A stretch of DNA of 63,551 nt, the filler included, from Dimorphilus gyrociliatus (taxonomy: Eukaryota; Animalia; Annelida): the NCBI GenBank assembly GCA_904063045.1. It is 3 parts of 3 records of this genome, joined end to end, with 100 filler letters (N's around TTAATTAATTAA, not from the genome) between each part and the next. Parts side by side here need not be neighbours in the genome. Positions count along the whole stretch, not along the records: positions 23,469 to 53,864 come from CAJFCJ010000136.1; 2 more parts are not named here. One strand, given 5' to 3'. The notes beneath the pieces were generated by a model, which was given only the letters and a program-made list of their open reading frames with translations, searched no databases and was not told the DNA's origin. How positions within the stretch are numbered: the stretch's first letter is position 1; each line of letters opens with the position of its first letter. The position numbers were made by a program, and so were the translations under genes. Positions 20,201 through 62,810 of this stretch are shown piece after piece.

Positions 20201-20635
20201 GGAAATTTTCTCCATCTATACTAAAGAAGACTACGTAAAACTAGCTCTTTCTTATTGATTTTTTCCCAAAATTTCTTGGAAAAAGTCCAATGTTATTTAA
20301 ATCATCTTTAACAAAACTAGACTGCAATATTTAAAAAAATTCACATGCAGATATTAGTCTCAATATATTTATTATAAGGAAGAAGTCTTTGTCTCTTTTG
20401 CCAACAGAAATGAAATATAATGACACCGGAATAACGTGAAAACTATCCTTTAACTTGTAACAAAGTGATGACACCCATTAACTCTTCAATTATCTAGTTA
20501 GCGATAGTTTATAAACTTCGTTTTTGAAATAATATAAAGGATTATTTCCAGGGAGGTTTCCTGGCAACGCATTACTCACGGGAATTGATTGTTATTTTAA
20601 CAATATAATCATATTATTTGTAAATTTTATATATA

Positions 20636-20670
<35 letters not shown>

Positions 20671-23368: not shown

Positions 23369-23468
23369 NNNNNNNNNNNNNNNNNNNNNNNNNNNNNNNN
23401 NNNNNNNNNNNNTTAATTAATTAANNNNNNNNNNNNNNNNNNNNNNNNNNNNNNNNNNNNNNNNNNNN
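23369..23468. other. Artificial contig linker / gap
   Basis: 44 N + TTAATTAATTAA (stops in all six frames) + 44 N. Confidence 0.97.
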
Positions 23469-26400: not shown

Positions 26401-29400
26401 CACATTGAAAATTATATCAAACAATGAAAATAGAGAAGCCACCTATGAACAGACTTTGTACTTAAAACCTTCTACAAAACCAATACTCAAATTAAGGTCT
26501 TCTATTTTAATTAATTAATCTTTTTCTAATTTTTTTATTTCTAGGTGCAGAAAGAATTGTTTAGAGAAAACGTCACTCTCGTCTAACACTATTTATCAAG
26601 TGAGTTGTTTGTCGAACTGTTCCAGTCTATTCTGGAAAATAAACTATTTTTGGAAAATTATGGAAAATGTAAATGGAACTTGGAATGCTATTAAAGATAT
26701 TTCACATAAAATTTCTACAAATTTTTCATCAACTGACGTCTTAGAAATCAAGGAAAATGTCCTCACTCCAGGGGTCTATCATATGATCATTGTTGAAGGA
26801 AAATTGGAAGAAATCGGCCATACTGGGTTTATAAATGACACTTTTCTCGTAAATAAACCTCCATTCGGTGGTAAATGTAATTGTCAACCTAGGTTTGGTT
26901 TTGCTTCAATTACAAATTTTCAGATAAGTTGCCTAGGTTGGCAAGAATTTAAAAAGCCAGAGAATGCTACTGGCTTAAAATTTGAATATAGAGCAAGAGC
27001 AAAGGGAAGTAGGATGAGTTTTCTACTATATTTCTCATTTAAAGACGAAGTCGTCTATTTAATGCTGCCAGTTGGCGATCCAAGAAATGAAGTAACGGAA
27101 ACGATAGTCAATGTCATCGATTCGGTTGGAGATTCGTATGAATTTATCTTTGATGTTCACGTTCAACCGCCACCAAAAGCTGAAAATTTACTATTAGATT
27201 TAACTCTTTCTGTTGTTTCCGACGGTATTTTACAACAACAATTGCAAACCGGAAATTATAGTCAAGTGTCTTCAACAATTTATTCCGTAACGTCGATTCT
27301 CAACGCCAATCTTAATAAATCTTTAGAAAATACAAAAAATATGACGGAGAATGATAAAGTTAAAGATTCCTGCGAAAAGAGATTAAAGAGGATTAAGGTA
27401 AATCCATTTAGACTAATCTCAGGTGTTTTCAGACTAAAAGAATTATCATTTACCTAGGCCAGAAAACAAATGATTGATTTTGCAGTAAAACTTCCATCCA
27501 ATTCGGTGGATGAACTGGAACAAAATAACGGGCTTGTTAGTACTTTAGTATACAAACCAAAGGAAGTAGATATTGGGTCACAGGTAAAAAAAAACAAAAG
27601 ATAAATACCAATATTCATATCAATAAATGAAGGCGTAACCCTGTCAATTCTATAGATGACTGTAGCAAATCAAATAGAAAAGTTAAATGGCGTTTTAAAC
27701 AAGCAAAAACTCACAACAAAACTTAAAAAAGATTTATCAATAAGTTACTATCTTTAAAAACATCTATTCAATATTTACAAATAGCTTTCCCTCTTTAACA
27801 TAGGCCTGTTAGAAACTTCTATACTAACAACAACCGCTGCCGATACGTATAAAACGGATGTTATTAGGAAAGAGGAGTTTACAGCGGTTAATGGAACAAA
27901 TAATATAACAACGTTCTTTTGTGACGTTACGTCATTACCTGAAAATATTACGAATAGTCCTAATACGACTAGTGGAAAATTGAAAAATGTTATGACAAAC
28001 GTTCTTCGGGTTATTAACAACGTTACTGATGAATTGTTACTTGAACAAACTGAGGATAGTCCGCCCTTAAATGTTGAGTTTGAACAAATGATTATTAATA
28101 TTGAAAAAGCTTCTATTAATAGAATTCAAAATAGTAGCTATTCATCGAATTTTGGATTAGTAAAATTGAATTCAATTCAAATCCACTCTTCTTGCGCAAC
28201 GAGAAAGTTAATCATGTCCAACATTAATCCTTATATGTGGGATAATTCCTCTTTGAAAGTGACTTCTACTATAATGGATTTTTTAATTCAGCCTTGTAGT
28301 TATCTACTGCCAAAACAACCAAACAGAAAGAGAAGGAGCGTTCAAAACAAACAAGCTTCTACTAATTTCTCATTGACCTTGAACTTGAAAAATAATGATG
28401 AAGGTATTCAATACGTAAATACAACTAAACAATCAGCTATTCACATTCTCAATGCCACAAAGAATATCTTAATACTGACATTTGACCTTAACAAGGGAGA
28501 TGTTTTCTCCGTGCTGATTGGTTATAATTCAAGACCAGTGAATGATAAAAATAACGGATCTTATACCATACCTGATAAGAATAAGACCTGCTCCTCAAAC
28601 CTTGACCAAGAACATTGCGCAGAATATAAAAATACTATAATGCTTAGGCCAATTCAAGATTACGCAATATTTGCGATAGTCAGCTGTTCAAACTGTTCAA
28701 ATCATATTCTGAACTATAGTATTAAAATAGGTTACCCATCGTGTAAACTATGGAAAGGTGAACATTGGGAAGAGGATGATGATTCGTGCACAATTGAAAA
28801 AGAGACAACTGTAACGAAAGCAATGTTTAAAAGTAATCTATTCGGAAGTTTAGGAGCTGGATTAGAGATTGCTCCAAATCTTATCAATTTTCACACAGTG
28901 TTCAATGACTTTTCGAGTAAATTGACTGATAATGCAGCCGTCTTTGGAACAATTTGCTCATTGTTCCTTCTCTTTATCCCTTTGGCTTTGTTAGTGAAGA
29001 GGTTAGATAATAGAGATAGATTATTGTGGACACCCTTACCATTGATAGACAACTTTACTGAGGATAAATACGAATACGAAGTACACGTCTATACAGGAAG
29101 TAGAAAGGATGGTGGTACTAAATCTACAGTAAATTTAAGTTGTTACGGAACAAAATCCAAAACTGAGAATCGAATTTTAAAATCTGAAGAAATAGTTTCC
29201 TTCGAAAAGGGATCAACTAGATCATTCCTGATGACAACACGTGACAGTATAGGATCACTTGTATGTATAAAAGTATCACTTGACAAAATGGATTCATGGT
29301 TTCTGTCAAGAATAATCATCATCGATAAAATATCAAATTCCGTCTATGCTTTCAAATGCGAAAAATGGTTGTCCCTTATTCATGGAGATTGTCAAACCGA

Positions 29401-31933
29401 AAGAATTCTGGTTGCTTCTAAACTACAGACAGATATACTATTATTGAGAGATATTAGAAGGAAATTACTTGATGATCACCTCTGGGTATCGGTAGGCACT
29501 AGACGAACAAAATCAAATTTTACAAGACTTCAACGATTATCAGTTTGTTTCGTTGCTCTATTTCTATCAATGATCGCTAGTTGTATGTTCTATAGAAATT
29601 CTGAAGAATCTAACCTTAAAACTGTATTAAGATTTGGAACTGTGACATTTACAGTATACGAATTATACGTTGGTTTCGCTAGTAGTGTTGTTGTATTTCC
29701 TGGCTTGATTCTAGTAACATTGCTATTTACATCAAAAAGATGGAGGAAGTATACAATTCCATTGGGATGGAGTATAGCAGCTACTACTGCAGCTGTTGCT
29801 GCTTTCTTTACAATTCTATACTCAATTCAATGGGGAAGGGAGAAATCATTAAAATGGCTTTTATCATTTTTTCTCTCATTTTTACAAAGTATTATTCTGG
29901 TCCAACCAACAAAAGTGATATTAGTTGCATTCATACTGACATATCTCTTTAAAAAAGACTTTGATCCAATGAAATACGAAGAGAACATCAGCGATATGAA
30001 AAAATTGGAAAAGGAAGATCTATCTCACATTCCAGAAGGTAAGGGGAAAAAATTCAATTTTTAATTTAAAAAATAAATTACAAATCAACATACAGATATA
30101 AATATTTATGAGAGATTAAAACATGCTTTAAATCAAACTGCTTTATTGAAAAGTGAAAAGTGTCTTGAAGATAAAATGAACAATATGATTAAGAGAATTC
30201 TCTTCCATACAATCTATTTACTATTTGTTATCTTCATATGTTATAGCAATCAGAATCCTATGCTCTATTATCAAAATAGGTCAATTTGTAATACAATACC
30301 AAATGTTACTAAGGTAACTAATTATAAAACATTTTGGAAATGGATTGAACATTACGCAATACCGGAACTTTATCCAAAATTACACTACCATAACAAGACT
30401 TTATCAGAATATAATCAAAAACATACAAGCGAGTTGAATCATATGAGATTTTCAGCTGTTAGATTATTTCAAATGAGAGTTAAACGAGATGATTGTCAAC
30501 TTGTTGGCAATTTAAAAAGATACTTTTCGAAACGTCATTGTTTCGGTTATTATTCAGAGAATAATCGACTTGAACAGAATTTTTCGATATACTGGGGTGA
30601 ATTTAATATAAATAGAACTAATCAAGCTTTTATCTATTCGACAGAAGGTAGAGGTTTCTCAGTATCATTAGGACAACAGGCCGATGAAGCCTTGGCAAGG
30701 GTATTTGAATTGAAAAAATATAGATGGATAGACCGTCAAAGCCGTTACGTTAAATTAGAATTAACAATACTAAATCAGGAAATTGTTTCTCAAGCTGCAT
30801 GGACATTTGAATTTAAGCCTATAGGTGGGATAATTGTTAAATTTCGAAGTGATTCCCTACAACTTTACAGATATACTGGAGCTGGTGGCTTAGTTTCTCT
30901 CATATTCGAAATTCTATCTATACTAATATGGCTTATTTTAATTGCTCAATGCGTATACCGTTACGTTAAATACTTAGAAACTCCTCCTCTATTATTACTA
31001 ATCTCGTTGGTATGCTTCCTTTGCGCCATTTTATTATACATTTCGAGGACGATAATTGGTGTGAAAACCATTGAGAATGTAATGAATTCAAGAAGTGAAT
31101 ATGTAGATTTGTCGATATTCTTTCAATCTCACGATTATTTTATGATATTTATTGCTTTTTGCGGATTCTTTGGTCAACTTCACGTATTAAATTTATTGAA
31201 AATATCAAGAACAATTTCTGTTCTTGTTGGTACACTGAAAAAATCTAGAACAGATTTAATAGGCCTAGGATTTTGCAGTTGCATTGTATTTATCGCTTAC
31301 GCTTCTTGCGGCTATATTATTTTTGGTAGAAATATGATTAATTATAAAAGTTTTAAATATTCATGTTACTCTTTAATACTAACCATTTTTGGACATTTGA
31401 ATTTTGAAAAATTATCAGTTTTTAATGGAATTGTGGGTAAAGTTTACATTACGTCATTTGCATCAGTAATGACGTATCTAATTTTAAATATATTTATTAC
31501 AACTTTGAATGGATTTTTAACTGCGGTCAAACGTGATCCAACGGTTTTACCAGAAGATCATCAAGTATTTCAATACATTACTAAGAGTATTAAGAAAATT
31601 TTTTCAAAAATTGACGACACGATAAAAAAGCCGATACTTGAAAATGATAATGATAAGGATAATAATAAATGCAAAGGTTAATTTAAATGTTTAAAAATTT
31701 GAATACATTCGAAATTAAATTAGAATTTTCTCTTTCTCTCTTTAGAATTATGTAATAGGATTGAACATTTGGAAAAAATTGCTAACTCTTGGAATTCTTA
31801 TCTTGATAGAGAATTATTTGATGTCATATTAAAAGCAAGTAAATCAAAATGTAGAAATTCAAAATGCTTTGCAAAAGAATTAATAGAAATTTGTGAAAAT
31901 TCAAAAAAGAAATCAGTAGATCATTTGTTGTAA
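23469..31933 (+). CDS. Polycystin-1-like protein (PKD repeats, REJ, degenerate GPS, PLAT, 11-TM with channel-like domain); 5' truncated by the gap
   Basis: Exons 23469-26496, 26545-27397, 27458-27583, 27656-27743, 27804-30038, 30096-31676, 31746-31933. PKD motifs IDFGDG/LNFGDG/FDLGDG. REJ motif (LSYDPD..FQWHCR). PLAT motif (YEVHVYTG..GGTKSTV..FEKGS..WFL..KCEKWLS). DDHLWVSV..FTRLQRLSVC follows, then five TMs and a six-TM channel-like domain. Confidence 0.93.
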
Positions 31934-43931: not shown

Positions 43932-44769
43932 TGTTTTTTATGACATGGTACACATAAAAAACAAACGCATTGGACAAGAAATGAACAATAAATGGGGTGG
44001 ATCTTACATTAAAACTTAGTCTATACCAAGTCATACATCATATTTGAAAGCTAAGGATCTCCTTATAACAATAACATTGAAAAAAAACTTCATTACCAAA
44101 GAAAATTGCTAAATTTATGTTAGATTGATTATTAATAAAATAATCAATAAGTTTTTAATCACAAAGATTTATAAGAACAAAAAAAACCTCTAAAAATTAG
44201 AAATTTTCTTTCATGGATGTTTTCTGTCCCATCCTAGTAAAATGGGGTTATGTGTGAGCATATCCATTAGCAAATATTTTCAACCTTGAAAACATTTTAG
44301 GAAAGGGTTAATTTGAAAATTTGGTTTGATCTATTCTTAGAGGGATTACAATTTAGGGTTAGGGAATACAAATAACACAGGGATTACATTCAACTTTAGA
44401 TATATTAAGGTAGGCTTCAACCCTCCAAGGGTATGTTCACACCCTCACCCACCCTTGTAAAACACCTGTATGGACACCAGGATATTTTTTGATTTATTTA
44501 TACCTGGACATAGCTCATCAGTAGAATCGAGGCAGTTTTTTTCCTTGTCGCATACCAAATGTGACTTTATACATTATCCATAAAAGCATTGAAAGCTGCT
44601 GAGTGTATAATTAAATTAACATTAGATTCATTGAAAAATTAATGATGTTGGCTAAAAAGAAACCTATATGTCTCATTGCATGGCTCACACACTTGAAACA
44701 AATATTTGAGATAATCAATCTAATATCTAAATTAGCAAGTAAAATTATTATTCACCACATTATTGTTCC

Positions 44770-44990
44770 TCTGAACCATCATTGCAATCATTTTTAAAAT
44801 CACACAAAGTAAAGAATAATTTCTTGTTTCAATTAATAAAAGACACTCAAATGTTATTTTTTCCTCTAAGCAATTATCTTCATCTTCTCTGGATGGACAG
44901 TCTTCATAGTCATTACACAAATGTACACAAATTTCTACACATTTCATCAATCTTGCATTAAAATAACAATTGTCCTTTATATGATACATT
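44770..44990 (-). pseudogene. LDL-receptor class A repeat fragment
   Basis: CVEICVHLCNDYEDCPSREDEDNC fits the LDLa consensus. The following repeat is frameshifted and the fragment is isolated. Confidence 0.65.
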
Positions 44991-45446
44991 TTGTGTCATT
45001 TCTGTGGTATCAAATTTTTCTACAAATTTGAAACAGATCAAAGAAAAAAATGACAAAAGAGGGATTGTTTTTGTTTTTGTTTCATTTTTACCATAGAGTG
45101 AATGACAAAGAATAAAACTATTATGGCTTTTTGACTTGTTCATTTTCTATTGAAGTTAGATAAGGAATATAAATTGAGGGTCTAAAATACCAGGACACCA
45201 TAAATTTTGATAGGCTGAAGATTAAAAATCTTTTTCTTGATCAAAAAAGATTTTATTTTCTATTTTTTAGCAATGAAATATTAAGCAAAACTGGGATCTA
45301 CATAGAAATTTCTATCAAATAATATTTAGATAAGTTTTTACATATTTTTTTTCATTTTTATATAGTGTATATTTTCATAAATTTTTTTCTTATTTGGCTG
45401 TGAGTCACATTATTTGGGACAATGGTTTGGGGACTAATATTTTTGA

Positions 45447-45612
45447 TACTTTTGTATTTGATGACCTTCTTTCTCAATGCATGTACTGATCCTACCCCCC
45501 ATTCCAGCATACAGATTTAGTAGCAAGTCAGGATTTTTGTTTATAAGTTTGTAGGAGCATTCTTTAATTTTCTCCCATAGTTCATCTTCTGATGTGAACT
45601 GTGCCTGTACAC
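45447..45612 (-). mobile_element. Tc1 transposase C-terminal relic (third piece of the family)
   Basis: QFTSEDELWEKIKECSYKLINKNPDLLLNLYAGMG..CIEKEGHQIQK is homologous to the C-terminus encoded at 8622-8800. Confidence 0.85.
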
Positions 45613-46983
45613 TTATGAACTATAGTTTATAGATATTTTATAAATGATACTTACTATATGGTAGAAGTGTTGAAGTAGATGTTGCCTCTAGGGTAGATGG
45701 TACCCAACTGCCGAAATCAACCCCTTTTATAGGCAAAGGATAAGATGTTACATAACAAACATGTTGACAACAACAACAAGTGTTTATTTACATAAATGAT
45801 GTAAGAATTGACCCTTGACGGGTAACCTACACAAAGTTGTTGTTGTTTACATCACTATTGCATAAAAAGATTACCTATGTTATAGGGATGGGGGTGCGAA
45901 TGTACCCATGGTGGGTTGAAGCCTACCTTAATATATCTGAAATTGAGTGTAATATCTGTGTTTTTTATATTCCCTAACCCTAAATTGGAGCCCCTCTAAC
46001 AATAAATTCATCCAAATATTAAAACTAACCCTTTCCTAAAATGTTTTCATGGTTGGAAATATTTGCTAACAGGTACGTTCGCACCCAACCCCATGTTATA
46101 GGCATTCTACCATTTGTCACCATAGAGGAAGGATTGTCTCTTGACAACACTCCGATGCATGTATCAATTTTTTTCAAGGATTTTCTACTTGATTTATTGT
46201 CTATGTTTCCATTTAAACAAAATTCTTTTTAAACTTACCATTTTTTCAGCCCATTTTCATCAAAAGTGCATTTGAAGAATCAATCTACTTAAAAGAAAGG
46301 TAAATAGAATATTAGTAAAAAAGATAATTTTTTTTGTAAAAAACTCAATATTAAAAAATCTAAATAGGATCTCATCAGAAGTAGTGTATTTGCTGCTCAA
46401 ATAATTCTACCATCAACTATACATCTAAAAGAATATTCCAGAAGTATTCTAAGTACTTTATATCTTGTTTAGAAGAGTTTTCCATTTCTAGATAAAATTG
46501 ACAGCCATCAGGCTTGGAATTTTATCAGTTTCAATTGATTCTTTGTAATAAATGCAATAAGATATTTTCTGGAGCCCTTTTCAGGCATTCTATATTAATG
46601 TAAAATACAAATATTTTTCTTTTTTTATTTCAACTGTTAGATTGTAAGGAAAAAAGTTCACCATTAAGGTTATCAATTTCCCTACAGTTAATCTTTTGAA
46701 GGAGTGCCTTTTAATAAATGACCAGTGTGTTTTTAATTAGAACGTCACTCTGTTTATAAATAGTAGGATAATCAGAAATATATTTATTCAGAAAAGTATC
46801 TCAAATGGATGTGTCACACTTGTAACAGGCTAATTAAATAAAAGTTTACGTTAGTTTCTTTTTTGTTATTTATTTAAGAAAGAATAACAAGTTGTGATGG
46901 AAAAAAAGAAATCTCTATCCATGGTTTTAGCCAGACATCTTTGAGGAAAAGGAATGTTTCAAACTCAATTTAAATACAGCAAA

Positions 46984-47209
46984 ATATTGTACTGTTCTTG
47001 CTGGCAAAATTTATGTGTTTCCAAGTTATAACAATACTGTTTCTACTCGAACCTTTAAACAAATGTTTAAATTAAAATGGTTTATTCGCAATAATAATAC
47101 TTAAGCAAGTAACAATATGAGAGTTCGATAGCAGAGTAGATAGTTCGTAAAAGCAGGTTGTCATATTACCAAACTGTCTTCTAATGTTGAGGAGTAGATG
47201 GATGGTTCC
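46984..47209 (+). repeat. 226-bp direct repeat, copy 1
   Basis: Collinear with 50089-50314, with scattered substitutions. Confidence 0.9.
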
Positions 47210-47460: not shown

Positions 47461-48669
47461 ATGGCAGAAGGTTGCAAGAAAAAAATTGCCCTGTGGACAG
47501 CTCCCAGATCATGTTCAACAGCATTTTCAAGAGCAATGGCTCAATGACCAGATACAAAGGTTAGTATAATTATATTAATAGATTTTAACATTCATTAAAT
47601 TTTCAATTTCTCCATACAACAGGTTTTACTTGAGCCATACATGCCCTGCTTCTACTATTCTTCTGAGAAAAAACATGACAGGTATCTTTATATTCTTTTA
47701 AATTATCATGTAACAAAAAATTCAAAAATAAATGACAAATAAATGAGTTGTTCAGGTTTAATCATTCAAATTATACAACAAATATTTTTGCAGACATGAA
47801 GTACATGAAGTAAATTCAGACATAGGTTACTCTTTCCAAAAGTGCAAAGAAATGTGTGAAAAGGAACCATCTGGTAAACTATCTCTTACAACAACTTCAT
47901 ATAATGATGCTTAAATATTTCAGAGAAATACGTTTTCATCAAAGAATTGGCTTATCAGCTAGGAGGAAGATTTGATGCACTTCCAGACAAATTTCAACAC
48001 ACATTTCTTATTAGGAATCCAAATAAAACTGTCAGATCACTGTATTCTGTAATAAGGAAAGGAGAGGTTATTTTTTTTTTCAATATTTCATACACGAAAT
48101 TAGTCCTAGTGTGAATAACTCATTTAGGACCCAACTTATACTAGTTTTGACAAGACTGAAGCTGGATTAAGCAACTGATGGAACTTTTTGAACATGTTAC
48201 TAAAGTTCTTGGGCAAGAGCCAATAGTAATTGAAGCTGATGATTTAGTGAATAATTCTGGTGAGTAGACAGGATCTTAAAGTTATAAATAAAAACTTTTT
48301 TTTGTTTACTAATTTAATAATTCTAGTTGGTATAGTAAAAAAATACTGTCAGATGGTTGGAATGGACTTTAAACATTGTATGGTGGAATGGGACAGTTCA
48401 ACAACAAATTTTAAAAAGCTTCAACAGAAATATAATTTTTTTAAAAATAATTTGACCACAAATCTGAAAAAAATTGTTTTTTTTTAAGTCATTGGAGTCC
48501 ATGGAATCCATATCATAAATGTCTGTTGTCAACAAACAAATTTGAGAATACTCAAGAAGGAAAAGAGCAGGAATGGGATATTCCAGCAGAGTGCCAGGAA
48601 GCTATTGATGAAAGTATGGATATCTATCAGGAATTGTGCAAGTACAAACTAAAGACGACTGAACAGTAA
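47461..48669 (+). pseudogene. P-loop sulfotransferase-like gene (family of the N-terminal domain of BCAT-like proteins), disrupted
   Basis: Exons 47461-47559 (IALWTAPRSCSTAFSRAMAQ*PD), 47623-47681 (LEPY), 47794-47873, 47924-48066 (FIKELAY..HTFLIRNP), 48128-48259 (PIVIEADDL), ~48328-48669. In-frame TGA at 47545-47547, a 1-bp deletion near 48165, and no GT donor for the last intron. Confidence 0.8.
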
Positions 48670-50088
48670 TTTAGAAAAAAAAAAAGAAATTATGGCTTAA
48701 AGGCTTAGAATATAACTATTTTCTATTCAAAACAATCTGTATGGGATGTGGTAGAAAACGGCCATAAATCTATGGTTTTACCCTAACCCTAACCCAGCCC
48801 TTGTTTTTGCCTAACCTTTTTGAATACCCCTAACTCTTAGATGGGACCCTCCTGAGAACATATCAACAGTTATCTTATTCCTCCTAACCATTTCCCATGC
48901 TGAAATCTAACTTTCAAATATTTCATTTATGGCTGTTTTCAACCAGTCCCCTTTTATATATATATGCTTTCATAGTTAGAATATTTCAATTGTGAATTGT
49001 TGAACTCAAGACATGAACTAATTCTTTTTCACATACTTTTGTCTAACCTTGTCTGGAAAATGTAGGTCAGAAATTATCAATACAATATTTTGTCAGGTTT
49101 TTTCATTTTGATTATTTAGAAAATGAATAGAAAAAACTGATTTATATCTGACACTTTTGAATTATCAATACTGTGCACTTCTGTTCGATATAGATGCTCT
49201 TTTAGAAAATTGTAGACTTAATTCATTACTATTTAATATGAATACTTCACAATAGCATTGAGCACTAGGAATGCACAATTCTATTATACATAAATAGACT
49301 GTACAAATACAGTTGGGATGAGAATGAAATTCCTAGGATTGCAATACAACAAAGTGCATCTACTTTCAGTTAAATTTAAAGTTTAAAACTTTTAAAAAAT
49401 TTTCATTGTGCATGAAATTCATCTGCCAGAATGATCTCAGAGACAGATGGAGCTACTTAGATAGCTTCTTTTTTCAATAAATAATTCTTTTTTACAAATA
49501 TTAGATATAAAAGAACTATGGAACAAAACCCAACTTGTACAATATTTTCAAAACAGAACAAAAAAATGAGACCAATAGCAATATTCTGTATATAATTTAA
49601 TAGGTTTTATTGCCGCTCAATGTGTATGCACTGCCCTTTGCAAAACTAGGTCATATCTCTATGAGTGCTATTTGTATAATACAATACTGGTTCAAAAATA
49701 CTTCTCATTTTCCACCTTGTTCAGAAAAATTGTTGTAAGTAATTTATTAATTGATAGAATTAAGAAGAAATTCATTTACAACTTTTAATCAACAATATTT
49801 CTGATAGCACATGCAATAATAAACAATGTATATATAAAAGAGATGAATGTGATATTAATATGGACTGCCTTGATGGTAGTGATGAGAAATATTGCCATAA
49901 GATGACAATACATACACATAAGATATAATTATATTTTTTATATTTCCTTTATAATTCTATAGAAATGTTCTTTTATTTAAAACAACTAATGAAAAACTTT
50001 ATTAATTATGCCAACTTACCAATAAAAAGATGTAAGAACAGATTTATTAAAAAAAGTCAAATTTGTGATTTTAAACCTAATTGCATTG

Positions 50089-50314
50089 ATATTGTACTGC
50101 TCTTGCTGGCAAAATCTATGCGTTTGCAAGTTATAACAATACTGGTTCTACTCGAACCTTTAAACAAATGTTTAAATTAAAATGGTTTATTCGCAATAAT
50201 AATACTTAAGCAAGTAACAATATGAGAGTTCAATAGCAGAGTAGATAGTTTGTAATAGCAGGTTGCCAAATTACCAAACTGTCTTCCAATGTTGAGGAGT
50301 AGATGGATGGTTCC
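50089..50314 (+). repeat. 226-bp direct repeat, copy 2
   Basis: Collinear with 46984-47209. Confidence 0.9.
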
Positions 50315-50483
50315 AGTGGAGGTTGTTTCCAGATGATTTTCCCAGGTCCTTGGGTCCAGATGGAAGCTGCATGCCAAATGAGAATAATGAGGATTTATAT
50401 ACTTTGAGGTTTGTCTCTGACATCCAATCATCACTTTACAGTTGCCGAAATGTGTAGTTCATATTTATCTTTAGTAACAGGAT

Positions 50484-50727
50484 GTTACAAGGTTCAACAT
50501 TTAGGAAGGTTAATTGAATTATAACTTGGCCACACCCTAGGCAAGTTAATTAAATTATAACTTGGCCAAACCTTTATTGGTAATTAAAGATGAACCTTCA
50601 AGCTGACTAATCAGACTTATGTTTGGCCAATGTTATAGCATTTTCTTGCGTAGGTTTTAAGATGTACATGTATATGTTGCATAAAATAATAGAGTTCAAG
50701 CATGTAAAATATAACCAAAGTTGTACA
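50484..50727 (-). repeat. Putative 3' LTR (244 bp)
   Basis: Minus strand begins TGTACAAC one base after the PPT and ends CTTGTAACA. It contains AATAAA (plus-strand TTTATT at ~50573) and a duplicated AATTATAACTTGGCCA motif. The second LTR is not available to confirm the boundaries. Confidence 0.7.
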
Positions 50728-50728
50728 A

Positions 50729-50742
50729 CTTCCCCCTTCTTT
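50729..50742 (-). promoter_or_regulatory. Polypurine tract (plus-strand priming site)
   Basis: AAAGAAGGGGGAAG lies between the env stop and the TG start of the LTR. Confidence 0.8.
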
Positions 50743-50758
50743 GTGAAGATGAGTCCCT

Positions 50759-53180
50759 TCATCTTGATTTAATGAGAATTACAGGTGGTTGTTCTTCTTC
50801 ATTAGTTTGATGTTGACTAAAGCTACAACTTTGTTTCATTAGTTTTGGGTTTTCAGGAGAGTTATCTGTGCTCTCACTTGGGGTAGCAATTTCTTCTCTT
50901 TGTTTTCTTCTTCCAATAATATAGTTGAAAATGATGATACATACCATTGACACTACAATACTCAAACAAATATTTCGTATGATAACATAAAGTGTTTTCC
51001 CAGGTTTATAGTACCAACTATGGAAAAACTTTTTAATTCCAGATAAATTGGGTACAATGCCATTTTTCTCTGCAACAGTGACCATGTTATCATACCTTGC
51101 CTGCTTCTGTTCCAGTGAACTGATAACTTGCTTAATTTTTGAGTGCTGGTATGCAATATCCTTCTTTACCCCATGGTGGAGTAGATCAGCTAATCTGGCA
51201 ATTTCAATTTTTGGTTCAGAAAGGTGATTGTGGATATGTAACTGCATGGATTTTGCAGACACAGTGTGAAATCTGCATCCTCTTTCTGAATAATACACAT
51301 ACGTTTTGTCTTTCATTGGTTGGTTTCTTATAGGATTTAATGGGTTGTGAGTTGTTTTGTAGAATAACTTGTTAGACTTACACTCATTATAGGTAATCTC
51401 TTCAGGATTGACTTGCTGTAAAACATGAGTAACTGGTTCTACTTGGAAAAGCAGGTTGTTCATGGTGACAAGTAAAAATTGAGAACATTTGTTATTCTTT
51501 TTTATCATGCTTAAGTCACAAACTACTTCTGTTGAGGCTATTGGTGAACATTGTTTAATTATAGCTAATTCTCCCATCTGACTACTGTGCATTCCCAACT
51601 CATTTGTTAACACTGTGGTCAATTGAGGATCCAAATTTGCTAGTAATGCCATCATTCTGCTTCTTTGAACAAATTGATTGCAGAGAAGACTTGACAGCTG
51701 TTGGGTAAACTTTTTTAAATTCTTAAAATTTGAATCAATACCATGTAGTAAGGTAGATGTTTGGGCAGCTTCTCTCATTTCCAATGGGAATTTGTGGTAT
51801 GGGTTTTTACTTATCTTATGTTTCAGTTTTGCTTCCTTCTTCATCTGCTTTTTAGCCATTCTCATGTGTAGAGTAAAATAAATTCCTTCATAGGTAATCT
51901 TAAATTCTCTGGCTGGTGGTCCTTTATACCATATGCCCAATGTTGGTAATACCTTCTTTTTGATTCTTTTCTCACTGTATACATATTTTGAAATCGTGAC
52001 AGATTGTCTTGTTGCCCTTGTCCAATTGACTGCTTGCAGCATTTCTTGGATATAATAGTTATCCAGCTCCCAGTAAGATGGACTAATGGGTTGTTGTAGA
52101 TGATATATCACAACTTCCTTGAGTGTGCCTTTATTTCTCATTAGTTTATACTTTGTGTTTGTTTCTCTGTACCATTGGTTAAGACTTGGTAAGGGGTTGT
52201 TTCGCTTGTATAGTATAATTTGTTCTTTAACTTTATTGGGATAGTTTAATAGTTGTTTTTCTTCATTTTTGCCAATCTTCTGATATTGTAGCAAATTGTA
52301 TAGGTGTTCCTTGCTTGTTTCCTGTATTAAACTCTGTTCCTCCAGTGGTACTAGTACTTTTGTTCCAGGACCACCAATTCCATCAATAAACTTATCTTGA
52401 TAAGGGATGTCCAGAATAGAATACCCTGGACAAGAATAGTGACCAGCAAATTTGATACAACTAATTCTGTTGCTAATTTTTATCCATGGTGATTGTTGCC
52501 CAAGTGTGTAATTATTCTTGAGGTTCCTAAAGACAATAATTGCCTCTTCTGTCTCACAATAGGACTGCCCTGGTAAACAATCTTCCAGGTAGTCCAGATT
52601 AGTTGTAATTTTCATATTAGGAGGTTGCCAATATGCTTTGCCAAACTGGATAATTGTGGTGTATTCCAGCACCTTGGTTGTTGTTGGCCATGTGTAGGCA
52701 GCAGGAAACTGATCTTGGTGGATCCAAGTGTTTCTTTTCACCATTAAAGGTTTTCCTTGAAAAGATCGTTTGTCTTTTATCATCTGTCTGCATTGATCAT
52801 GAGTTACTTTGATAACTGAGTTAACAATCCTCCTCTTCTTTGCTCCAAAGAAATAGTAAGTGTAAAAATTAGTTCTTAGATACACTTGACATTTTACTGC
52901 TCTTGTTTCAATTTCTTCCAAGTTCAATTCATAGATATCAGCTGTAATTGTCTTGGTTTCTTGTGATTCTATATTACAAGTTGGCTCATCTGGTAGATCA
53001 AATGCCTGGCTTGGTAGTTGGTTAGAACAAAAGTATAACGGTGGTTTAAATGTTAAGGTAATGTTTGCACTTGTAACATGGGCACCTTGGTAGGATGGTT
53101 TTTGGGACTGTTATTGAGTGGATGCAGCCACAGATCACCATTACAGTCATCACTAGTGGAAGCCACAACATCTGTTTCAT
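50759..53180 (-). CDS. env: Class III viral-fusion-type envelope glycoprotein (rhabdovirus G / herpes gB / chuvirus G-like); one frameshift near the 5' end
   Basis: The frame is open 53110-50759. Cys-rich N-domain (YFC..LPDEPTC..AVKC..TYYFFGAK..DQCRQM..YTWP..DCLPGQSYC..IIVF). gB-like trimer-helix motif LCNQ..LANLDP..MGELAIIKQC. C-terminal TM (IIRNICLSIVVSMVCIIIFNYII) and basic tail. Sequons NIT, NYT, NWT, NLS. Signal-peptide-like MKQMLWLPLVMTVMVICGCIHS starts at 53180 in the adjacent frame. Confidence 0.82.
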
Positions 53181-53762
53181 GTTAGCTCTTCCTGTGTTGG
53201 CTATAGTTGAATGGTTGAAAGTTTTGTGTTGTTGTTCCACTCTGATAGTTATTCCATCTTCTAACTCTATATATTGTGGTTCCACTTCTTGTTGGGAATC
53301 TAATTGTTCAGAGATGATTTTAGTCTCATCTAAAAATATGACTGACTCATTGTCTGTGTCACTTGTATTTTCTTTCTCATCTTGGGATGAATCTACCACT
53401 ATGAGGGACTCATTATCCGAATGGGTTATGTCAATAATTTCACCTTCAATAATTATTGACTCATTATCCGAATGGGTTATATCAATAATTTCGCTTTCAA
53501 TAATTATTGACTCATCGTCTGAACTAGATATTTCATCTTCTCTATCAGAGATAATGTTTGCCTCTGAATCTGTATTTTGATCCAGTTCATTATTTGTTTC
53601 TGTGTCATCACTTTCAGATGAGCTTGAAGGTTTATTGAGACTGTAATTACTATCTGTTTTGAAAGTATTGCTTGTGTCATAACCAGTATCAGAATTAGTA
53701 ACTTCCATCTCTGAGTCATCACTATCTGAACTTTCTGATGAAGAGTCATGCTGTCCCATCAT
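53046..53762 (-). CDS. Acidic Ser/Asp/Glu-rich leader ORF of the retroelement, ending in the env signal-like segment
   Basis: 238-aa ORF, low complexity, with an internal 17-aa repeat. The C-terminal hydrophobic stretch overlaps the start of the env frame. Confidence 0.55.
   Translation of the reverse strand: MMGQHDSSSESSDSDDSEMEVTNSDTGYDTSNTFKTDSNYSLNKPSSSSESDDTETNNELDQNTDSEANIISDREDEISSSDDESIIIESEIIDITHSDNESIIIEGEIIDITHSDNESLIVVDSSQDEKENTSDTDNESVIFLDETKIISEQLDSQQEVEPQYIELEDGITIRVEQQHKTFNHSTIANTGRANMKQMLWLPLVMTVMVICGCIHSITVPKTILPRCPCYKCKHYLNI
53407..53515. repeat. 51-bp tandem repeat (~2.1 copies)
   Basis: GACTCAT recurs at 53407, 53458 and 53509; encodes ESIIIE(S/G)EIIDITHSDN. Confidence 0.9.
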
Positions 53763-53864
53763 GGCTATAGTGACTTTGTTTAGTTGGGGTTGCCTTATTC
53801 TTTCAGCCAGGTTCCTTTCCTTCTATCAAATTTGAGAGAACACTGTTTAGCTTCAAAATTGAGG

Positions 53865-53964
53865 NNNNNNNNNNNNNNNNNNNNNNNNNNNNNNNNNNNN
53901 NNNNNNNNTTAATTAATTAANNNNNNNNNNNNNNNNNNNNNNNNNNNNNNNNNNNNNNNNNNNN
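53865..53964. other. Artificial contig linker / gap
   Basis: 44 N + TTAATTAATTAA + 44 N, identical to the linker at 23369. Confidence 0.97.
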
Positions 53965-56900
53965 ATAAATGAGTATGAATTTTTGATATAGAGAGATAAA
54001 ATCCTTGTCCATTCATTGATAATCTTTTAGTATATCTTGTTAATTTCACTTCTAAATCATCATTTTTTATATTTTCAACACCAACAAAATGGCAGATTAA
54101 TTCTACTAATTTAATTCTTTTACAAAGATTATTAGAGTTATTGTCAATATTTTCCCCACAAATCATTTCATCGTTTCCATAGAAACAATTGATTTCGTTA
54201 TTACAAACTTTATCAATTACGATTGCTTTTGATTCATTCCTGCATTGAAAATATCCTCTAGAGTATGCAAATCATTTCATCTTCATTATGAAAACAATGA
54301 TTTATACCGTCGCAAATTTGATCAATTGATATACAAAACTTGTAATAAGAACATAAAAAATGTCCAGGTGGACAAAACTCTTTTGAACAATTTGAAAGTT
54401 AAAAATAAGGTAGAAAATTTCTAGTTAATAAAATTCCCGTTGAATCATATTGCAAATTACATTTGTATAGTTTTCTTGTAAATTTTTTCCTTTCTCGTGC
54501 TGAGTTGCATTGATCTGAATTTTCATCTTCACCATATAGACAATCCTTTTTGAAATTGCATAATTTCTCTTCTCTGACACATGAATTATCGCATTCCCAT
54601 TGTCCATTTTTACAGTCTTTATATGTAAATATATATACATATAAGAGGATGGTAGAATAGAGAGGATGGTAGAATAGAGTAGAATAGTATCTCATTTATT
54701 TATCAAGTTCAAGGTCACTAGTATCTAATTTAATTTTTACCTTCTGTAAAGCTTGTGTGAATTGCTGTAACGTTTGCGCAAATTTCATCGCTGGAATCAA
54801 AGCAGTTTTTCTCATTGTTGCAAACTAATTCGGAATTGACGCATTGTTTGTTGTGACATTGACTAATAGGAAACAAATTGTTTTTGAAAACTAAATGACA
54901 ATCTTTTTATTTTTTTTATCTAGAAAAGTAAGATGGCTAGCAGAAATGCTTTCTGACATAGTTCTCTGTCTAAAATAAATACAAATTATGACTTTTAAAC
55001 AATCTTTGTACAATTTTTTTCATCTTTTGACATTTGATCCTAAATTTGTTACTCTAAAATTTATCTTATAATCTTTAGTTAAGATTATCCTGTCTAGAAA
55101 TTAATTAATCCATTCTCTCTTCCTACACACCAAAGAAATAAATGTAACGTTTTCTGTCCAACTTTACCGCAAAATTTTTCATCCGACTTATCAGGACAAT
55201 CATTGATAAAATTGCATACAAATTTATATGCAATAGTATGGTTCGACGTATGACAATGGAGTAACGTGTCAAAACTATATTGGCAATTTTGTTCATCTTC
55301 CGCCAAAGGACAATCCGAATGCTTATCACAAAGATACAAGATATTAATATAAGATCCACTTTTCTCACATAAATATGTAACAATATTAGTCTGGTATTGT
55401 AAATTATTGTTCAAATTTTCAAGACTGGGTGGAGTGTCATCTAACAATCAATAAAAACAAAAATTATGATAGAAAGAAAGAAAGAAAGAAAGAATGAAAA
55501 ACAAAACTTACATAAAATTTTCTGACAAATATAATAGTCTTTCTGAAAATTTGAACAAGGAAATTTTCTATTTGCAAAACCTAGAATGGAGAGTTTAATG
55601 TGAAAAAATTGAGAAAAGATAAACCATATTTCTATACCTCGAAATGGATATTGTCTTATAATAGATTTTTCCGTTAACTATTTAAAAATAAAGAATTGTT
55701 GATTTATGAAAAATTTAAAAACAAACAAACAAAAGAAACTTGAATACAATCTCCAACAAAACTTTCTAACAATCGTACATTATCATAAAGAGCAGTAATT
55801 TTATCTTCATCAGATTCTAGGAAATATAACTCTAACTTTTAAAAAGAAACAAACATATACGTCAAATTGGTTTGTTTATAGGCCAATAAATTTTTATATT
55901 TACTCACATCGTTTGAAGATAATTGCAGATTTGTGATTAAAGTTATTGGTATATTAGACGGTGTTAATAAAGCATGTTCATTATGGACAAATTTCTCTTC
56001 TAAAGCTTTTAAAAGGAGAAAAAAATTTCTTTCTTTTTCTCAAATTAAAAGGAATTTTTTTACGGTAAAATATTTGGAATGTATCCTGTAGCCTTAGACC
56101 CCCTGAGCGATAATAAAATAGAAATGATTTCATAAACATTAGAACTTCATAATCGTGCCCTGGGAAATCTGCCAAAGTCGCATTATTCTTTTTGCAGTTC
56201 TCCACTTGTTTATAGGCAGATAATTTTTGGCTATTGTTTTGAATGGTATAGCAGACAGAATTGACAATAAAGGCGTATTGTCCTTCGCATTTCGGATCTT
56301 AAAAAAAATAAATATCTAACCCTGAAATATTTCCAGACTGGTTCCCTATTCCTATCTCTATCATATTAATACTTACCAGTTGGAATTGTGTTATAGCAGT
56401 AAGGCGTTACAATTGTTATAAAATAATAATCGTCAATTTGCTGACAGTACTGAAAATGGTTATCATAATTGTCATAATAATTCATCTCAAGTTGTTTGCA
56501 AGCTATGGAGGGTAATCCTTCACCATTCTATTAAATAAATAAAAACTTCTAAATTAACAAAGATTTGACTATAAATGAAATTACATTAATGTCAACTGTG
56601 TCACTACTACAAGAAAGTGGATCAGCAATCAATTTAAAATGCCAACAGATGTCTCTGCAAACCTGTTGAAAATTTTTTAATTGATAAAAATATGGCGGAA
56701 TAGCACCATAAGTTTTTTTTTGACCTACATTCACTTTCCTTTTTGAAACATCTAATACAAAATCCAATATCAGAATTGTATTCAATTTTTGAACTTGAAG
56801 ATAGAAAGATTATTAGAGAAAGAGAGAGAGGAAAATTTAAACTTTTTTACTTACTAATTACAACAAGTTTGATTTATAAAAGTTATTTGTATTGCATAAG

Positions 56901-60144: not shown

Positions 60145-61338
60145 TTAAATAATGAGATGATTAGTATAATATTCATATGTACTTTTATTACATATCGATT
60201 CAGCTATTGATATTTGTTCAAGACTTTTTTCCGATGTCTTCAACCCAATCATTATCCTTTCATATCCCTTCCCCAATCTGTGATTTCCTAGAAATTCAAA
60301 AAATTCAAGGCTTTGGCAGTATTCTAAACAATCACCAAGCCATTCTCCTTGATCAGAATCCAGATTGCAATGGTTTAAATTCAAATATTTCAGAGAACGA
60401 AAAGAATATTTTAGGCCATTACAGAAATCTTTGAACGAATTGCCCATTTGATCATTGAAGCTCATATCAAAATTTGATAATGTCAAATTCTTTAGAAGAT
60501 TTCCCAAAATGGTTGTTTGTTTAGTTGAAAAATTACAATTAGAAAAGTAAAGATTATTCAAGAAGTTACGAGAGGAACTTAGACCTTTACAAATACTTTC
60601 AAAACCACTACCCATATTTTTGTTCTTTTCAATGCTAAAGTTTTCAATATTATGACATTTACCCAACAATTCACCCAAATACTCAGCTTGAGGAGACTGC
60701 AAGTTAGAATATCCAACATTAAACTCTCTAAGTGAGCGACTTGAATTGTCCAAGCTTTTACATAACATTTGAAAAGCATAATTTGAAAAACGACAATTTT
60801 CAAGTACAACATCTTTTAGCCTAGTATTTACTTTATAAACATCTGACAATATTTCAGCAGCTATATCATCCAATATGGTGCTTTGTAAGACAATTACCCT
60901 TAAATTATGGTAATTACTTAATTGTTGTAATGTCAAATATAAATTTTCAAAATCTCCCATTGGCTTATAAATATAAATAAGTCTGAGATTTGGATTTACT
61001 TTCAATATTTCTATAATTTTTTCTGTATTTTTTTTACTAAAAACAAAATTCCACAGTTTTAATGCTGTTAAATTTTCCACCCTGAAATCACTAACAATCT
61101 CTTTTACATCCATAAACTGAAGAAAATTTACATCATTTTCACCAAGAGGAATTCTTTTTACATTTTCTGCATTCACAAATGTTGCATAACCAGATAGGTT
61201 ATGGCTTGAAGAGATATTTTGTTTTCTTTGAATATTAACATTTTTGTAATTGAGAAAAATGGATAACATCGGAGATGATGTAAAAGATTTTGTAAAATTT
61301 TGTTGGGTAACAATCCTTTTCTGAAAAATTCTATACAT
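60145..61338 (-). CDS. RNI-like leucine-rich-repeat protein, single coding exon, 397 aa
   Basis: Alternating ~28-aa repeats (LxxxNxMGxGFxxICxGLxxSxxxL / LxLxxCxLxxxQxExLGxxL). Intact ORF. Confidence 0.85.
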   Translation of the reverse strand: MYRIFQKRIVTQQNFTKSFTSSPMLSIFLNYKNVNIQRKQNISSSHNLSGYATFVNAENVKRIPLGENDVNFLQFMDVKEIVSDFRVENLTALKLWNFVFSKKNTEKIIEILKVNPNLRLIYIYKPMGDFENLYLTLQQLSNYHNLRVIVLQSTILDDIAAEILSDVYKVNTRLKDVVLENCRFSNYAFQMLCKSLDNSSRSLREFNVGYSNLQSPQAEYLGELLGKCHNIENFSIEKNKNMGSGFESICKGLSSSRNFLNNLYFSNCNFSTKQTTILGNLLKNLTLSNFDMSFNDQMGNSFKDFCNGLKYSFRSLKYLNLNHCNLDSDQGEWLGDCLEYCQSLEFFEFLGNHRLGKGYERIMIGLKTSEKSLEQISIAESICNKSTYEYYTNHLII

Positions 61339-61541
61339 TATTTCCTTTTCTCGCTGAAATTTACAAGACTAAATTTGATCTCTAAAAAAATTTTTTAACC
61401 ACTACAAACATGAATTGAATATGGTTACAATGATTGAATGAATGGTTTTCATTTCAGAAAGGTATGGTTTTAGTTTCGAATGAATGAATATTGGTGGTTT
61501 TATTTTTTTTTCACTAGTTTCAAGTGCAAACAAAACAGGAA

Positions 61542-62810
61542 ATGTCTCTGAGAATATGTAATATTCTTAAACTAAAACCGAAGAATAACATCACAATGAA
61601 TGTATGGTCCGTCAGTAGAATGATGATATCACCTTTGGCCAATTGTCAATTTTCAACTTCAACTACAAAGCAAAGGACTTATCAACCTACAAATGACATA
61701 AGATATATCAATGAAGAAAATATTGAAAATTTCGATTTTTCAACAAAAACCAAACGTTACTGTTTCTACAAATTTGAAAGTTATAAGAAATTGCAATTAC
61801 CAAATAATGTCGAAAATATGCATTTTGTTAAATGCAATTTTTCAAAAGACAAAGTTAAAGAACTGTGTTATAGTCTGGAAAACATTATAAGCCAATATGG
61901 TTTGGCTATAACTTCTCCAGTAAATAAAGGTGATAATCTAAATTACTTTTGGGAATATCTTTTGGAAAAGCAACCAAATATTTGTGGATTTCATTTTAGA
62001 CATCATAAAATGGATGAATTAGAAATGAAAATATTTTCCAAATTTATTGGAAGCAACTCAAATAAACAGTCAATACATTTGGGGAATATAGATTTTTTTA
62101 AAAATGGCTTTGAAAATTTATTGTTTAATATAGCCAAATCAAGAGAATCTCTAAAAATGCTTGGTTTTCCATTAACTGATTTGAATTGTGAAGAAGGATA
62201 TTTAATTGGTGAATTATTGAAAAAAATGACTAATTTTAATAAATTAGATCTTACTGGAAATGACAAGTTGGGAAAAGGTTTTGAAAATATTTGTCATGGA
62301 TTAAGAACAGTAAAGGATAATATTAATGTTGTAACGTTAGATTTGTGTGATTTAAATGAAGAACAATGTGAAATTTTTGGATATTTACTAAAAGAATGCC
62401 CAAATATTGCAGTGTTGAATTTGGCCTATTGTAAAAATATGGGGAAAGGTTTTAAAGCAATTTGCCAAGGTTTAAAATCTAGTTCTCAACTAGCTGCCTT
62501 GAGAGTTGATTCCTGTGATTTAAATTCTCAACAATGCGAATGGTTAGCTGATATGGTGCATCATCATAAAAGTATTGCATATTTGTTTGTTGACGGAAAT
62601 TTAAATATGGGAAAAGGTTTTTTAAGTGTAATGAAAGGTCAAAAATATTCTCCTTTTTTTAAGGAACAATTGAATAGAGTTCATTTTGAAGATGAAGATC
62701 ATCTACTTGAAAGGAGCATTTACAATGCAAATTTAACTGAATATTTATTAACAACTACAAAAGAATACTCCCATGAATTTGTTAAATATTTGAAACATTT
62801 AGCAAAGTGA
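61542..62810 (+). CDS. RNI-like leucine-rich-repeat protein, single coding exon, head-to-head paralog
   Basis: Same repeat type (NDKLGKGFENICHGL; CDLNEEQCEIFGYLLKEC; MGKGFKAICQGL). First ATG at 61542. A probable 5'UTR intron spans ~61461-61517. Confidence 0.85.
   Translation: MSLRICNILKLKPKNNITMNVWSVSRMMISPLANCQFSTSTTKQRTYQPTNDIRYINEENIENFDFSTKTKRYCFYKFESYKKLQLPNNVENMHFVKCNFSKDKVKELCYSLENIISQYGLAITSPVNKGDNLNYFWEYLLEKQPNICGFHFRHHKMDELEMKIFSKFIGSNSNKQSIHLGNIDFFKNGFENLLFNIAKSRESLKMLGFPLTDLNCEEGYLIGELLKKMTNFNKLDLTGNDKLGKGFENICHGLRTVKDNINVVTLDLCDLNEEQCEIFGYLLKECPNIAVLNLAYCKNMGKGFKAICQGLKSSSQLAALRVDSCDLNSQQCEWLADMVHHHKSIAYLFVDGNLNMGKGFLSVMKGQKYSPFFKEQLNRVHFEDEDHLLERSIYNANLTEYLLTTTKEYSHEFVKYLKHLAK

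Follow-up and report, generated by a model that had tools for sequence, protein, structure and literature searches.

Likely copy of the Dingle retroelement family with a predicted class III (gB-type) envelope gene in Dimorphilus gyrociliatus

One locus in the genome of the annelid Dimorphilus gyrociliatus carries an envelope-like gene next to a long terminal repeat (LTR), which raises the question whether it represents a new lineage of enveloped retrovirus-like elements, as put forward in the original prediction, or a family already described. The window analysed here is a stretch of 63,551 nucleotides from assembly GCA_904063045.1, composed of three parts joined by filler. We consider the locus to be the 3' end of an LTR retroelement, comprising env, a polypurine tract (PPT) and a 635-bp LTR, and with good confidence a copy of Dingle (Dgyr_errantivirus_1) with an env predicted to be of the gB-type, class III kind. 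The element is real, but most likely not new.

Organisation of the 3' end

The proposed layout of env, PPT and 3' LTR was recovered in the window. The env stop codon lies 16 nt from the PPT, read at 50742-50729, and 31 nt from the LTR, which starts at 50727. The features of this part are as follows.

46988..47209, minus strand: partial second LTR copy, covering the final 222 bp at 95% identity, with ATAT beside it as well
50089..50092, plus strand: ATAT flank, visible side of a candidate 4-bp target-site duplication
50093..50727, minus strand: 3' LTR, 635 bp, TGTAC...GTACA, its end backed by the partial copy and by contig loose ends
50191, minus strand: AATAAA within the LTR
50401, minus strand: TATA-like box within the LTR
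50502-50572, minus strand: 36-bp tandem duplication within the LTR
50729..50742, minus strand: PPT of 14 nt, a single base ahead of the LTR, read from the sequence
53846..53964, no strand: assembly gap; everything upstream of 53845 is N

A TG...CA repeat was present as predicted, while its length was not 244 bp and its end not near 50484. The shorter LTR was rejected on three grounds. Firstly, 50093 is the sole end with a 5-bp inverted repeat among the 14 candidate ends listed; the candidate at 50483, adjoining the end proposed earlier, has one of 3 bp. Secondly, the partial copy, approximately 3 kb away, terminates at the same final base. Thirdly, contigs from the sequencing runs depart from the window sequence at 50091-50092, i.e., at the LTR end. 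Within the LTR an AATAAA at 50578, inside the 244 bp first proposed, precedes the TATA-like box, and the one at 50191 comes after it. The junction between LTR and host falls within an LDL-receptor-class-A-like (LDLa-like) host repeat.

No second full LTR and no primer-site match were found in the window; gag-pol, the primer site and the 5' LTR are expected inside the gap. Further copies were met in the sequencing runs. Their contigs agree with the window at about 99.5% identity, reach 1.2-3.5 kb past the gap edge and, in pieces that overlap, cover both env and LTR. A loose end beside the LTR end in run X3 contained a 12-nt primer site of tRNA-Ser type, 4 nt from the LTR, and in record 12 of this run the LTR was joined to the primer site, followed by 2.8 kb of different sequence. 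The second LTR copy that had been sought was obtained as a partial copy in the window and as a junction with the primer site in run X3, with pol remaining within the gap. The 3' LTR and the primer-site-linked LTR are known from separate sequences, window and run contig, respectively. Diverged relatives, including env pieces, were recorded in run X4 (records 20 and 22). Run X6, from another study under the same species label, contained almost none of the words sought and speaks neither for nor against.

The env reading frame and its predicted fold

A stop-free frame of 2.35 kb had been noted, and it was found as 783 codons at 50759-53110 on the minus strand. Among 300 shuffled versions of the region, no frame exceeded 177 codons. 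The features of this frame and its neighbour are given below.

50759..53110, minus strand: env frame, 783 codons from stop to stop, predicted class III fusogen
50906..50998, minus strand: predicted transmembrane anchor, residues ~705-735, hydropathy up to 2.69, followed by a tail of ~48 residues
51548..51682, minus strand: putative central helix region C477-C521, resembling gB domain III, with C477-x-Q...G-E...C521
51866..52339, minus strand: insertion of ~160 residues (258-415), modelled at low pLDDT and matching no Pfam family
52337..52963, minus strand: fusion domain and PH-like domain, residues ~50-258, best-modelled part, 10-residue pLDDT means 65-93
52679..52699, minus strand: candidate fusion loop 2, AYTWPTT, residues 138-144, putative role
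52838..52861, minus strand: candidate fusion loop 1, TYYFFGAK, residues 84-91, a strand turn in the model, putative role from the fold
53046..53822, minus strand: upstream frame, 258 codons, acidic and rich in Ser, Asp and Glu, then a signal-like hydrophobic stretch; overlaps env by 65 nt
~53088-53180, minus strand: the signal-like hydrophobic stretch of the upstream frame
53407-53515, minus strand: 51-bp duplication in the upstream frame

The frame encodes 17 cysteines and four N-glycan sequons. As written, it falls short of a full type I glycoprotein gene: its first methionine is residue 110 and no signal peptide is present. The predicted C-terminal anchor is there, the signal-like stretch is in another frame, and the window copy as written cannot yield a secreted Env from one frame. 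The env gene of the window copy is broken in the 65-nt overlap with the upstream frame, where contigs from four of four runs have a length other than that of the window. An intact frame had been taken as a sign of youth or selection. The frame is broken near the signal peptide, while the family does look young, because the run contigs are nearly identical to the window and seven copies at >98% identity are listed in PMC13524379.

The full-length model of Env was weak (mean pLDDT 56.9, pTM 0.33), and single-sequence prediction gave a pLDDT of 33.6. When the model was compared by VIA-align with 48,161 chains, ranks 1-8 were all class III fusogens (Z 8.7-5.9), namely gB of HSV-1, HCMV and MHV68, G of Chandipura and rabies viruses, and Gp of the thogotovirus Bourbon. 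Residues 50-258 aligned with HSV-1 gB (2gum) over 203 residues (Z 8.7, rmsd 6.4) and with Chandipura G over 193 (Z 7.6, rmsd 7.9), identity in the top structural alignments being 4-13%. Helical matches at Z 5.2-5.9 were discounted, being coiled coils of a generic kind. The Foldseek comparison suggested at the outset placed pseudorabies gB first in the PDB (E 2.6e-9; TM 0.16), the best structural match in BFVD had E 3.5e-12, and the best ESM atlas score, 0.95, fell on PF24664 clusters, the neighbours being mostly Negarnaviricota glycoprotein clusters. A profile of the homologues (alignment A1) matched gB or viral "Glycoprotein" chains in 14 of 15 cases against PDB sequences (best E 0.0017), EBV gB among them at E 0.0025, and the homologue P0011 matched PF24664 at 5e-19.

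Among the sequence searches, Pfam gave no class III family for the whole protein and no viral family for three sub-regions, a Phlebo_G2_C match over the anchor (E 0.051) being rejected as below the cut-off; phmmer returned no PDB match. A word-index search yielded none of 4,538 candidates with env and one of 6,030 with A1.

The two loop motifs named in the original prediction, TYYFFGAK and AYTWPTT, and its helix motif, as C-x-Q...G-E...C, are all in the frame. In the model both candidate loops lie between strands; they are conserved in alignment A2, where W141 and P142 are invariant in five of five rows. A helix is predicted at 465-493, at a pLDDT of only ~45-56. The predicted fold is of the class III (gB/G) type, which upholds the class III features claimed for this protein. 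With herpesvirus gB, rhabdovirus G, thogotovirus Gp and the Monjiviricetes family PF24664 it would share the domain I/II fold, the C-terminal anchor and, tentatively, the central helix; it differs in sitting in an LTR element, in the low identity given above, and in that its role in fusion is predicted.

Homologous Env proteins ranged from 62% down to 15% identity. Twelve of 13 were aligned in A1, and only P0003 among these 12 spans the ~160-residue insertion. P0013, a D. gyrociliatus gene model and the only named protein among ten homologues looked up, was left out as chimeric. It shares 28 of 41 residues with the window env directly after a region resembling retroviral protease. Its N-terminus was placed with retroviral protease clusters in the atlas at 0.91-0.94, with low shared-feature counts; it had no PDB relative, and a protein search returned only P0013 itself. 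We treat the leaning towards retroviral protease as a lead only. Residues 160-195 may represent the start of a gypsy-type reverse transcriptase. Pattern searches for related loci with pol context were negative for 173 and 463 matches in metagenome contigs and 549 in viral contigs.

Assignment of the element

PMC7854359 describes Dingle (Dinophilidae Gypsy-like elements), named in 2020, as a Ty3/gypsy family of D. gyrociliatus with a gB-type env, in which the gene after integrase resembles gB of CMV and HSV-1; disrupted env copies were met by its authors too. Dingle shares with the window the species, the env type and such disrupted copies, and the link is one of species and env type. Row 15 of supplementary file 1 of PMC13524379 lists Annelida_Polychaeta_Dgyr_errantivirus_1, a Ty3/gypsy element with a gB-type env, in the seven copies mentioned above. 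Its downstream LTR (10348-10983 = 635) and primer-site spacing (2299/2303, i.e., 4 nt) can be set against 635 bp and 4 nt in the window and runs; the primer site agrees in 12 of 12 letters and env is gB in both, as is the multi-copy state. The window copy differs by its frame break near the signal peptide and by having its 5' part in the gap. A chromodomain after integrase would be expected in a member of Dingle / Dgyr_errantivirus_1; pol lies in the assembly gap, so the identity rests on shared features and not on DNA or protein alignment. In view of these publications, neither a new lineage nor an invertebrate group lacking a described case can be claimed.

The best surviving alternative, which we regard as unlikely, is an uncatalogued family of this kind, Ty3/gypsy with a gB-type env, that is either sister to Dingle or its relative in a related annelid. 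The primer site, of tRNA-Ser type by row 146 of PMC13524379, is common to many errantiviruses and not unique, with 26 occurrences in that table, including a beetle F-type element. The distance from env to LTR also seems unlike the published coordinates, being ~1.76 kb in Dgyr_errantivirus_1, if these include 3,000 nt beyond the stop of ENV, versus 31 nt here. Moreover, the prefilter of PMC13524379 counted 15 POL and 50 ENV regions in the species, with one element annotated, and diverged env pieces occur in run X4. Against this, LTR length, primer site and spacing agree simultaneously, and we retain Dingle as the preferred assignment.

Very improbable is a BEL/Pao element with a recently captured chuvirus-like glycoprotein. 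BEL/Pao elements with gB-like glycoproteins exist (PMC13524379; PMC7642597), and pol lies outside the visible sequence. However, a catalogued Ty3/gypsy entry agrees in primer site and LTR, and by the HMM check of PMC13524379 all its elements were classed as Ty3/gypsy. The evidence leans to Ty3/gypsy and away from the BEL/Pao reading. The mosquito elements of PMC7642597 likewise combine an LTR element with a gB-like fusogen, but belong to another superfamily by the evidence here and are reported as a capture within mosquitoes. A close viral donor was not seen, BFVD structural matches being 6-16% identical, and the 62% to 15% identity among homologous Envs indicates a deep family instead of a fresh capture. 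Nor is the independent, recent capture suggested earlier supported by PMC13524379, where the pairing of gB-type env with Ty3/gypsy elements, from cnidarians to insects, is argued to be ancient. Least credible of all is a chance position beside an LTR, either of a host-domesticated env or of a glycoprotein fragment from a negative-strand RNA virus, be it a contaminant or an endogenous viral element: the atlas neighbours are mostly Negarnaviricota glycoprotein clusters, but the stop codon lies at the short distances from PPT and LTR given above (16 and 31 nt), env and LTR occur together in overlapping run contigs reaching kilobases upstream, the LTR joins a primer site, and a partial LTR lies 3 kb away.

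Life cycle and what the window adds

From what is known of such families, Gag-Pol, hidden in the gap, would package the RNA; tRNA-Ser would prime the minus strand and the PPT the plus strand, and insertion of the DNA by integrase would create a 4-bp duplication. Copies whose frame is complete would presumably encode Env as a type I glycoprotein forming trimers, in which two aromatic loops may enter the target membrane and allow spread from cell to cell, perhaps from soma to germline by analogy with Drosophila gypsy.

The window adds no lineage, because Dingle was published in 2020 and the class it belongs to in 2026. It adds corrected boundaries for one copy, the position of its insertion within an LDLa-like host repeat, and two env details that look unpublished, the tunicate-type loop motifs and the large insertion. 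Approximately 221 elements across many animal phyla are marked gB-type in PMC13524379, whose discussion calls gB-type errantiviruses widespread and their entry mechanism unknown. Dgyr_errantivirus_1 is seemingly the sole gB-type among its 74 annelid entries; the Dgyr env is not one of the 32 gB-type proteins whose cysteine bridges were typed, and supplementary file 2 has no annelid row. In that file, the tunicate HSV/gB errantivirus Envs of C3 type (Amen_1, Atur_1, Clep_1/4/5) show, by eye, YFFG[AS] and Y-x-WP[TS] as in the window env, and similarly placed domain I cysteines. The host phylum differs, and the window protein has the insertion of ~160 residues after domain II.

Taken jointly, these observations allow a tentative and rather doubtful reading, in which an element of another marine invertebrate was the source of the Dingle env. 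A gypsy lineage would have acquired from it a gB-like env of tunicate type (C3) and extended this by the ~160-residue domain, which might serve to bind a receptor; this would explain why Dingle stands apart from other annelid errantiviruses. The family would still be expressed and moving, even into host exons. If this exchange of env were true, the lab-cultured worm would be a workable model for cell entry of a retroelement by gB only, without gH/gL.

Env frame and long terminal repeat

On the minus strand, positions 50759-53110 hold a stop-free frame of 783 codons; the longest frame in 300 shuffles of the region reached 177 codons. The encoded protein contains 17 cysteines and 4 sequons, has a hydrophobic anchor at about residues 705-735, and carries the motifs named in the original prediction. 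The stop is followed by 16 bases, a 14-nt purine tract, one base and TGTAC. An N gap at 53846-53964 bounds the sequence upstream. The first methionine is residue 110, and no signal peptide was found within the 783-codon frame. The type I glycoprotein had been placed in one frame; its C-terminal anchor stands, but the signal-like stretch sits in another frame:

53046-53822 (-), acidic 258-codon frame with a signal-like stretch, in another frame than env and overlapping it by 65 nt

As written in the window, the env gene is broken at this overlap. Since the contigs of all four sequencing runs aligned to the window (X1, X3, X4 and X5) differ from it in length inside the overlap, the break may be a property of the window copy or of the assembly. 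Apart from this difference the run contigs are close to the window, X1 record 8 departing from it, over 2,092 nt, by 9 letters and 2 gaps. A length difference between run contigs and the window is seen near the gap edge too. The signal-like stretch is preceded by approximately 200 acidic, serine-rich codons, which may form the C-terminal end of Gag-Pol or extend Env at its N-terminus.

A long terminal repeat (LTR) of 635 bp, at 50727-50093 (-), replaces the 244-bp repeat first proposed. Among 14 candidate ends listed, 50093 is the sole one giving a 5-bp inverted repeat with the LTR start. A partial copy at 46988-47209, 95% identical, has the same terminal base, and among the loose ends listed X3 contigs depart from the window at 50092 and X5 contigs at 50091. 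A TATA-like box (50401) and AATAAA (50191) follow the order expected for an LTR. Summed contig depth, which according to the tool's own warning is not copy number, was high through bin 50175-50419 (X1, 123 versus 30-48 over env; X3, 98 versus 24-39). X4 showed two short GT..AG skips on the plus strand, antisense to env, at 50406-50473 (LTR) and 51346-51406 (env), with sides of 28-29 letters; these are possibly spliced antisense RNA, or other copies.

Class assignment and relatives of Env

No class III family was returned by Pfam or PDB sequence search with the env protein alone. Scanning all 1.84 billion representatives yielded 13 relatives; the 12 that were aligned (alignment A1) are 62% to 15% identical to env. 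Only 2 of the 13 matched a viral family above cut-off, P0011 to PF24664 Monjiviricetes_fusion (5e-19) and P0004 to Rhabdo_glycop_FD (2e-5). The A1 profile matched 15 PDB sequences (best E 0.0017), and 14 of these are chains of gB or of a viral "Glycoprotein". Atlas neighbours of env were PF24664 clusters at 0.95, sharing 201 of 256 features, at a low recognition value (1524). Residues 258-415 form an insertion without a Pfam family, spanned among the 12 aligned relatives by P0003 only.

The AlphaFold model, built with 13 sequences, was modest overall (pLDDT 56.9, pTM 0.33) and good at residues 51-260. The top Foldseek rank went to herpesvirus gB (E 2.6e-9, with a TM of just 0.16), and its BFVD matches were glycoproteins of rhabdo-, chu- and herpesviruses, at 6-16% identity and with E 3.5e-12 for the best. 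The first eight ranks of VIA-align were all class III chains, led by HSV-1 gB (Z 8.7, rmsd 6.4, 203 aligned, residues 50-256); such Z values are singly near the tool's noise level, and the evidence is that four methods agree on one class. The class III Env originally predicted is thus supported at the level of models and profiles.

Of 10 homologues checked by name, one is a named protein: P0013, a Dimorphilus gyrociliatus gene model, identical to the window env at 28 of 41 residues. As a lead, a protease-like region precedes its env-like segment. The model combines this retroelement region and the 41-residue env fragment with host TSP1 and C1q domains, and is probably a gene prediction running across an internally deleted element copy.

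Element copies and published families

Two X4 records are diverged, record 22 with 18 gaps and 77 differing letters over 52462-53217, and record 20 with 31 differing letters in 302 nt. X3 record 12 (2,967 nt) spans the LTR end and continues into non-window sequence, which carries in its first letters a primer site of 12 nt, separated from the LTR by 4 nt; this is a 5' LTR junction. The expected 5' LTR junction and primer site were recovered, but pol sequence was not, and scans of metagenome and viral contigs gave no related loci with pol context. Other contigs extend 1.2-3.5 kb beyond the gap edge; together with the primer-site junction, therefore, a longer, multi-copy element exists. In X4 and X5, which are not recorded as RNA, GT..AG joints occur at three places in the neighbouring host gene (47557-48126), and contigs cover env (50726-53845). 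The contigs show neither strand nor level, and hint weakly at transcription of the family.

A gB-env gypsy family of D. gyrociliatus was named Dingle, its env modelled on CMV and HSV-1 gB (PMC7854359, Nat Ecol Evol 2020). The catalogue of 1,512 env-bearing Ty3/gypsy elements by Chary and Hayashi (PMC13524379, eLife 2026), as far as available, has 221 occurrences of "ENV_HSV" in its table and names rotifers, tunicates, cnidarians, ctenophores, nematodes, bryozoans, flatworms and insects as hosts of HSV-type env. Row 15, Annelida_Polychaeta_Dgyr_errantivirus_1, is ENV_HSV with 7 copies, LTRs at 1669-2299 and 10348-10983 and a primer site at 2303. It agrees with the window element in downstream LTR length (635), primer-site letters (12/12) and spacing (4 nt); DNA of the Dgyr element was not found in the available supplements. 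The window element very probably belongs to this named family, and the new lineage once proposed gives way to it.

A sister family, likewise Ty3/gypsy with gB-type env, is unlikely against these matches. It would accommodate the primer site, a common tRNA-Ser type with 26 occurrences in the available table, a beetle element included, and the env-to-LTR distance, 31 nt in the window versus about 1.76 kb in the catalogue entry if its listed interval stops 3,000 nt past the ENV stop. Beside the Ty3/gypsy match a BEL/Pao element is highly improbable, and a stray viral gene, beside LTR and primer-site junction, slightly more so. The window feature is real; most probably it is an element that already has a name, of a kind described before.

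Surroundings, proposed cycle and possible env exchange

In the stretch 49764-50092 (+), an LDLa-like repeat at 50064-50090, C-D-F-K-P-N-C-I-D, is interrupted by the LTR end slightly short of the acidic end expected of it. Upstream of it stands a complete LDLa repeat (PF00057, E 9.6e-7), and more lie past the gap on the opposite strand (53966-55447, -, E 1.9e-12 and 0.0018). Insertion of the element into a host exon is possible, and the change of strand at the gap may come from an artefact of scaffolding. Exons at 17220-21364 (+) resemble those of a class C GPCR of metabotropic glutamate receptor type. Other features are:

23417-31681 (+), polycystin-1-like gene with PKD, REJ and PLAT domains and very long exons, beginning at another N gap
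44238-46098, inverted repeat of 213 nt, 83% complementary, arms 1,435 nt apart, flanking further LDLa-like repeats
60145-61368 (-), single-exon frame of leucine-rich-repeat-like look, weak LRR_14 (E 0.0044)
61518-62810 (+), single-exon frame of leucine-rich-repeat-like look, no family, divergent from the 60145-61368 frame

The LTR, polypurine tract, primer-site junction, further copies and class III fold of the model are in evidence. From family knowledge, reverse transcription would be primed by tRNA-Ser, integration would leave a short duplication (ATAT stands on the one side that can be seen), and Env would act as a trimer whose two aromatic loops bring about fusion of the particle membrane with that of the cell. 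The entry mode of gB-type errantiviruses is given as unknown in PMC13524379.

In the available part of that paper, the D. gyrociliatus env is absent from the 32 envs typed for cysteine bridges. This and the two points that follow are slightly new, and figures of PMC13524379 or PMC7854359 may show such env details. With 148 occurrences of "Annelida" in the table, at two to a row in the 15 rows shown, there are about 74 annelid rows, and the ENV_HSV row next after row 15, itself the first, is row 88; the window-type env therefore seems the only annelid gB type there. The motif YFFG occurs in five rows of supplementary file 2, each of them a tunicate C3 entry; the comparison was made by eye, and alignment gaps could hide others. 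Because of these two observations, it is possible, judging by sequence, that env has been exchanged between elements of marine invertebrates.
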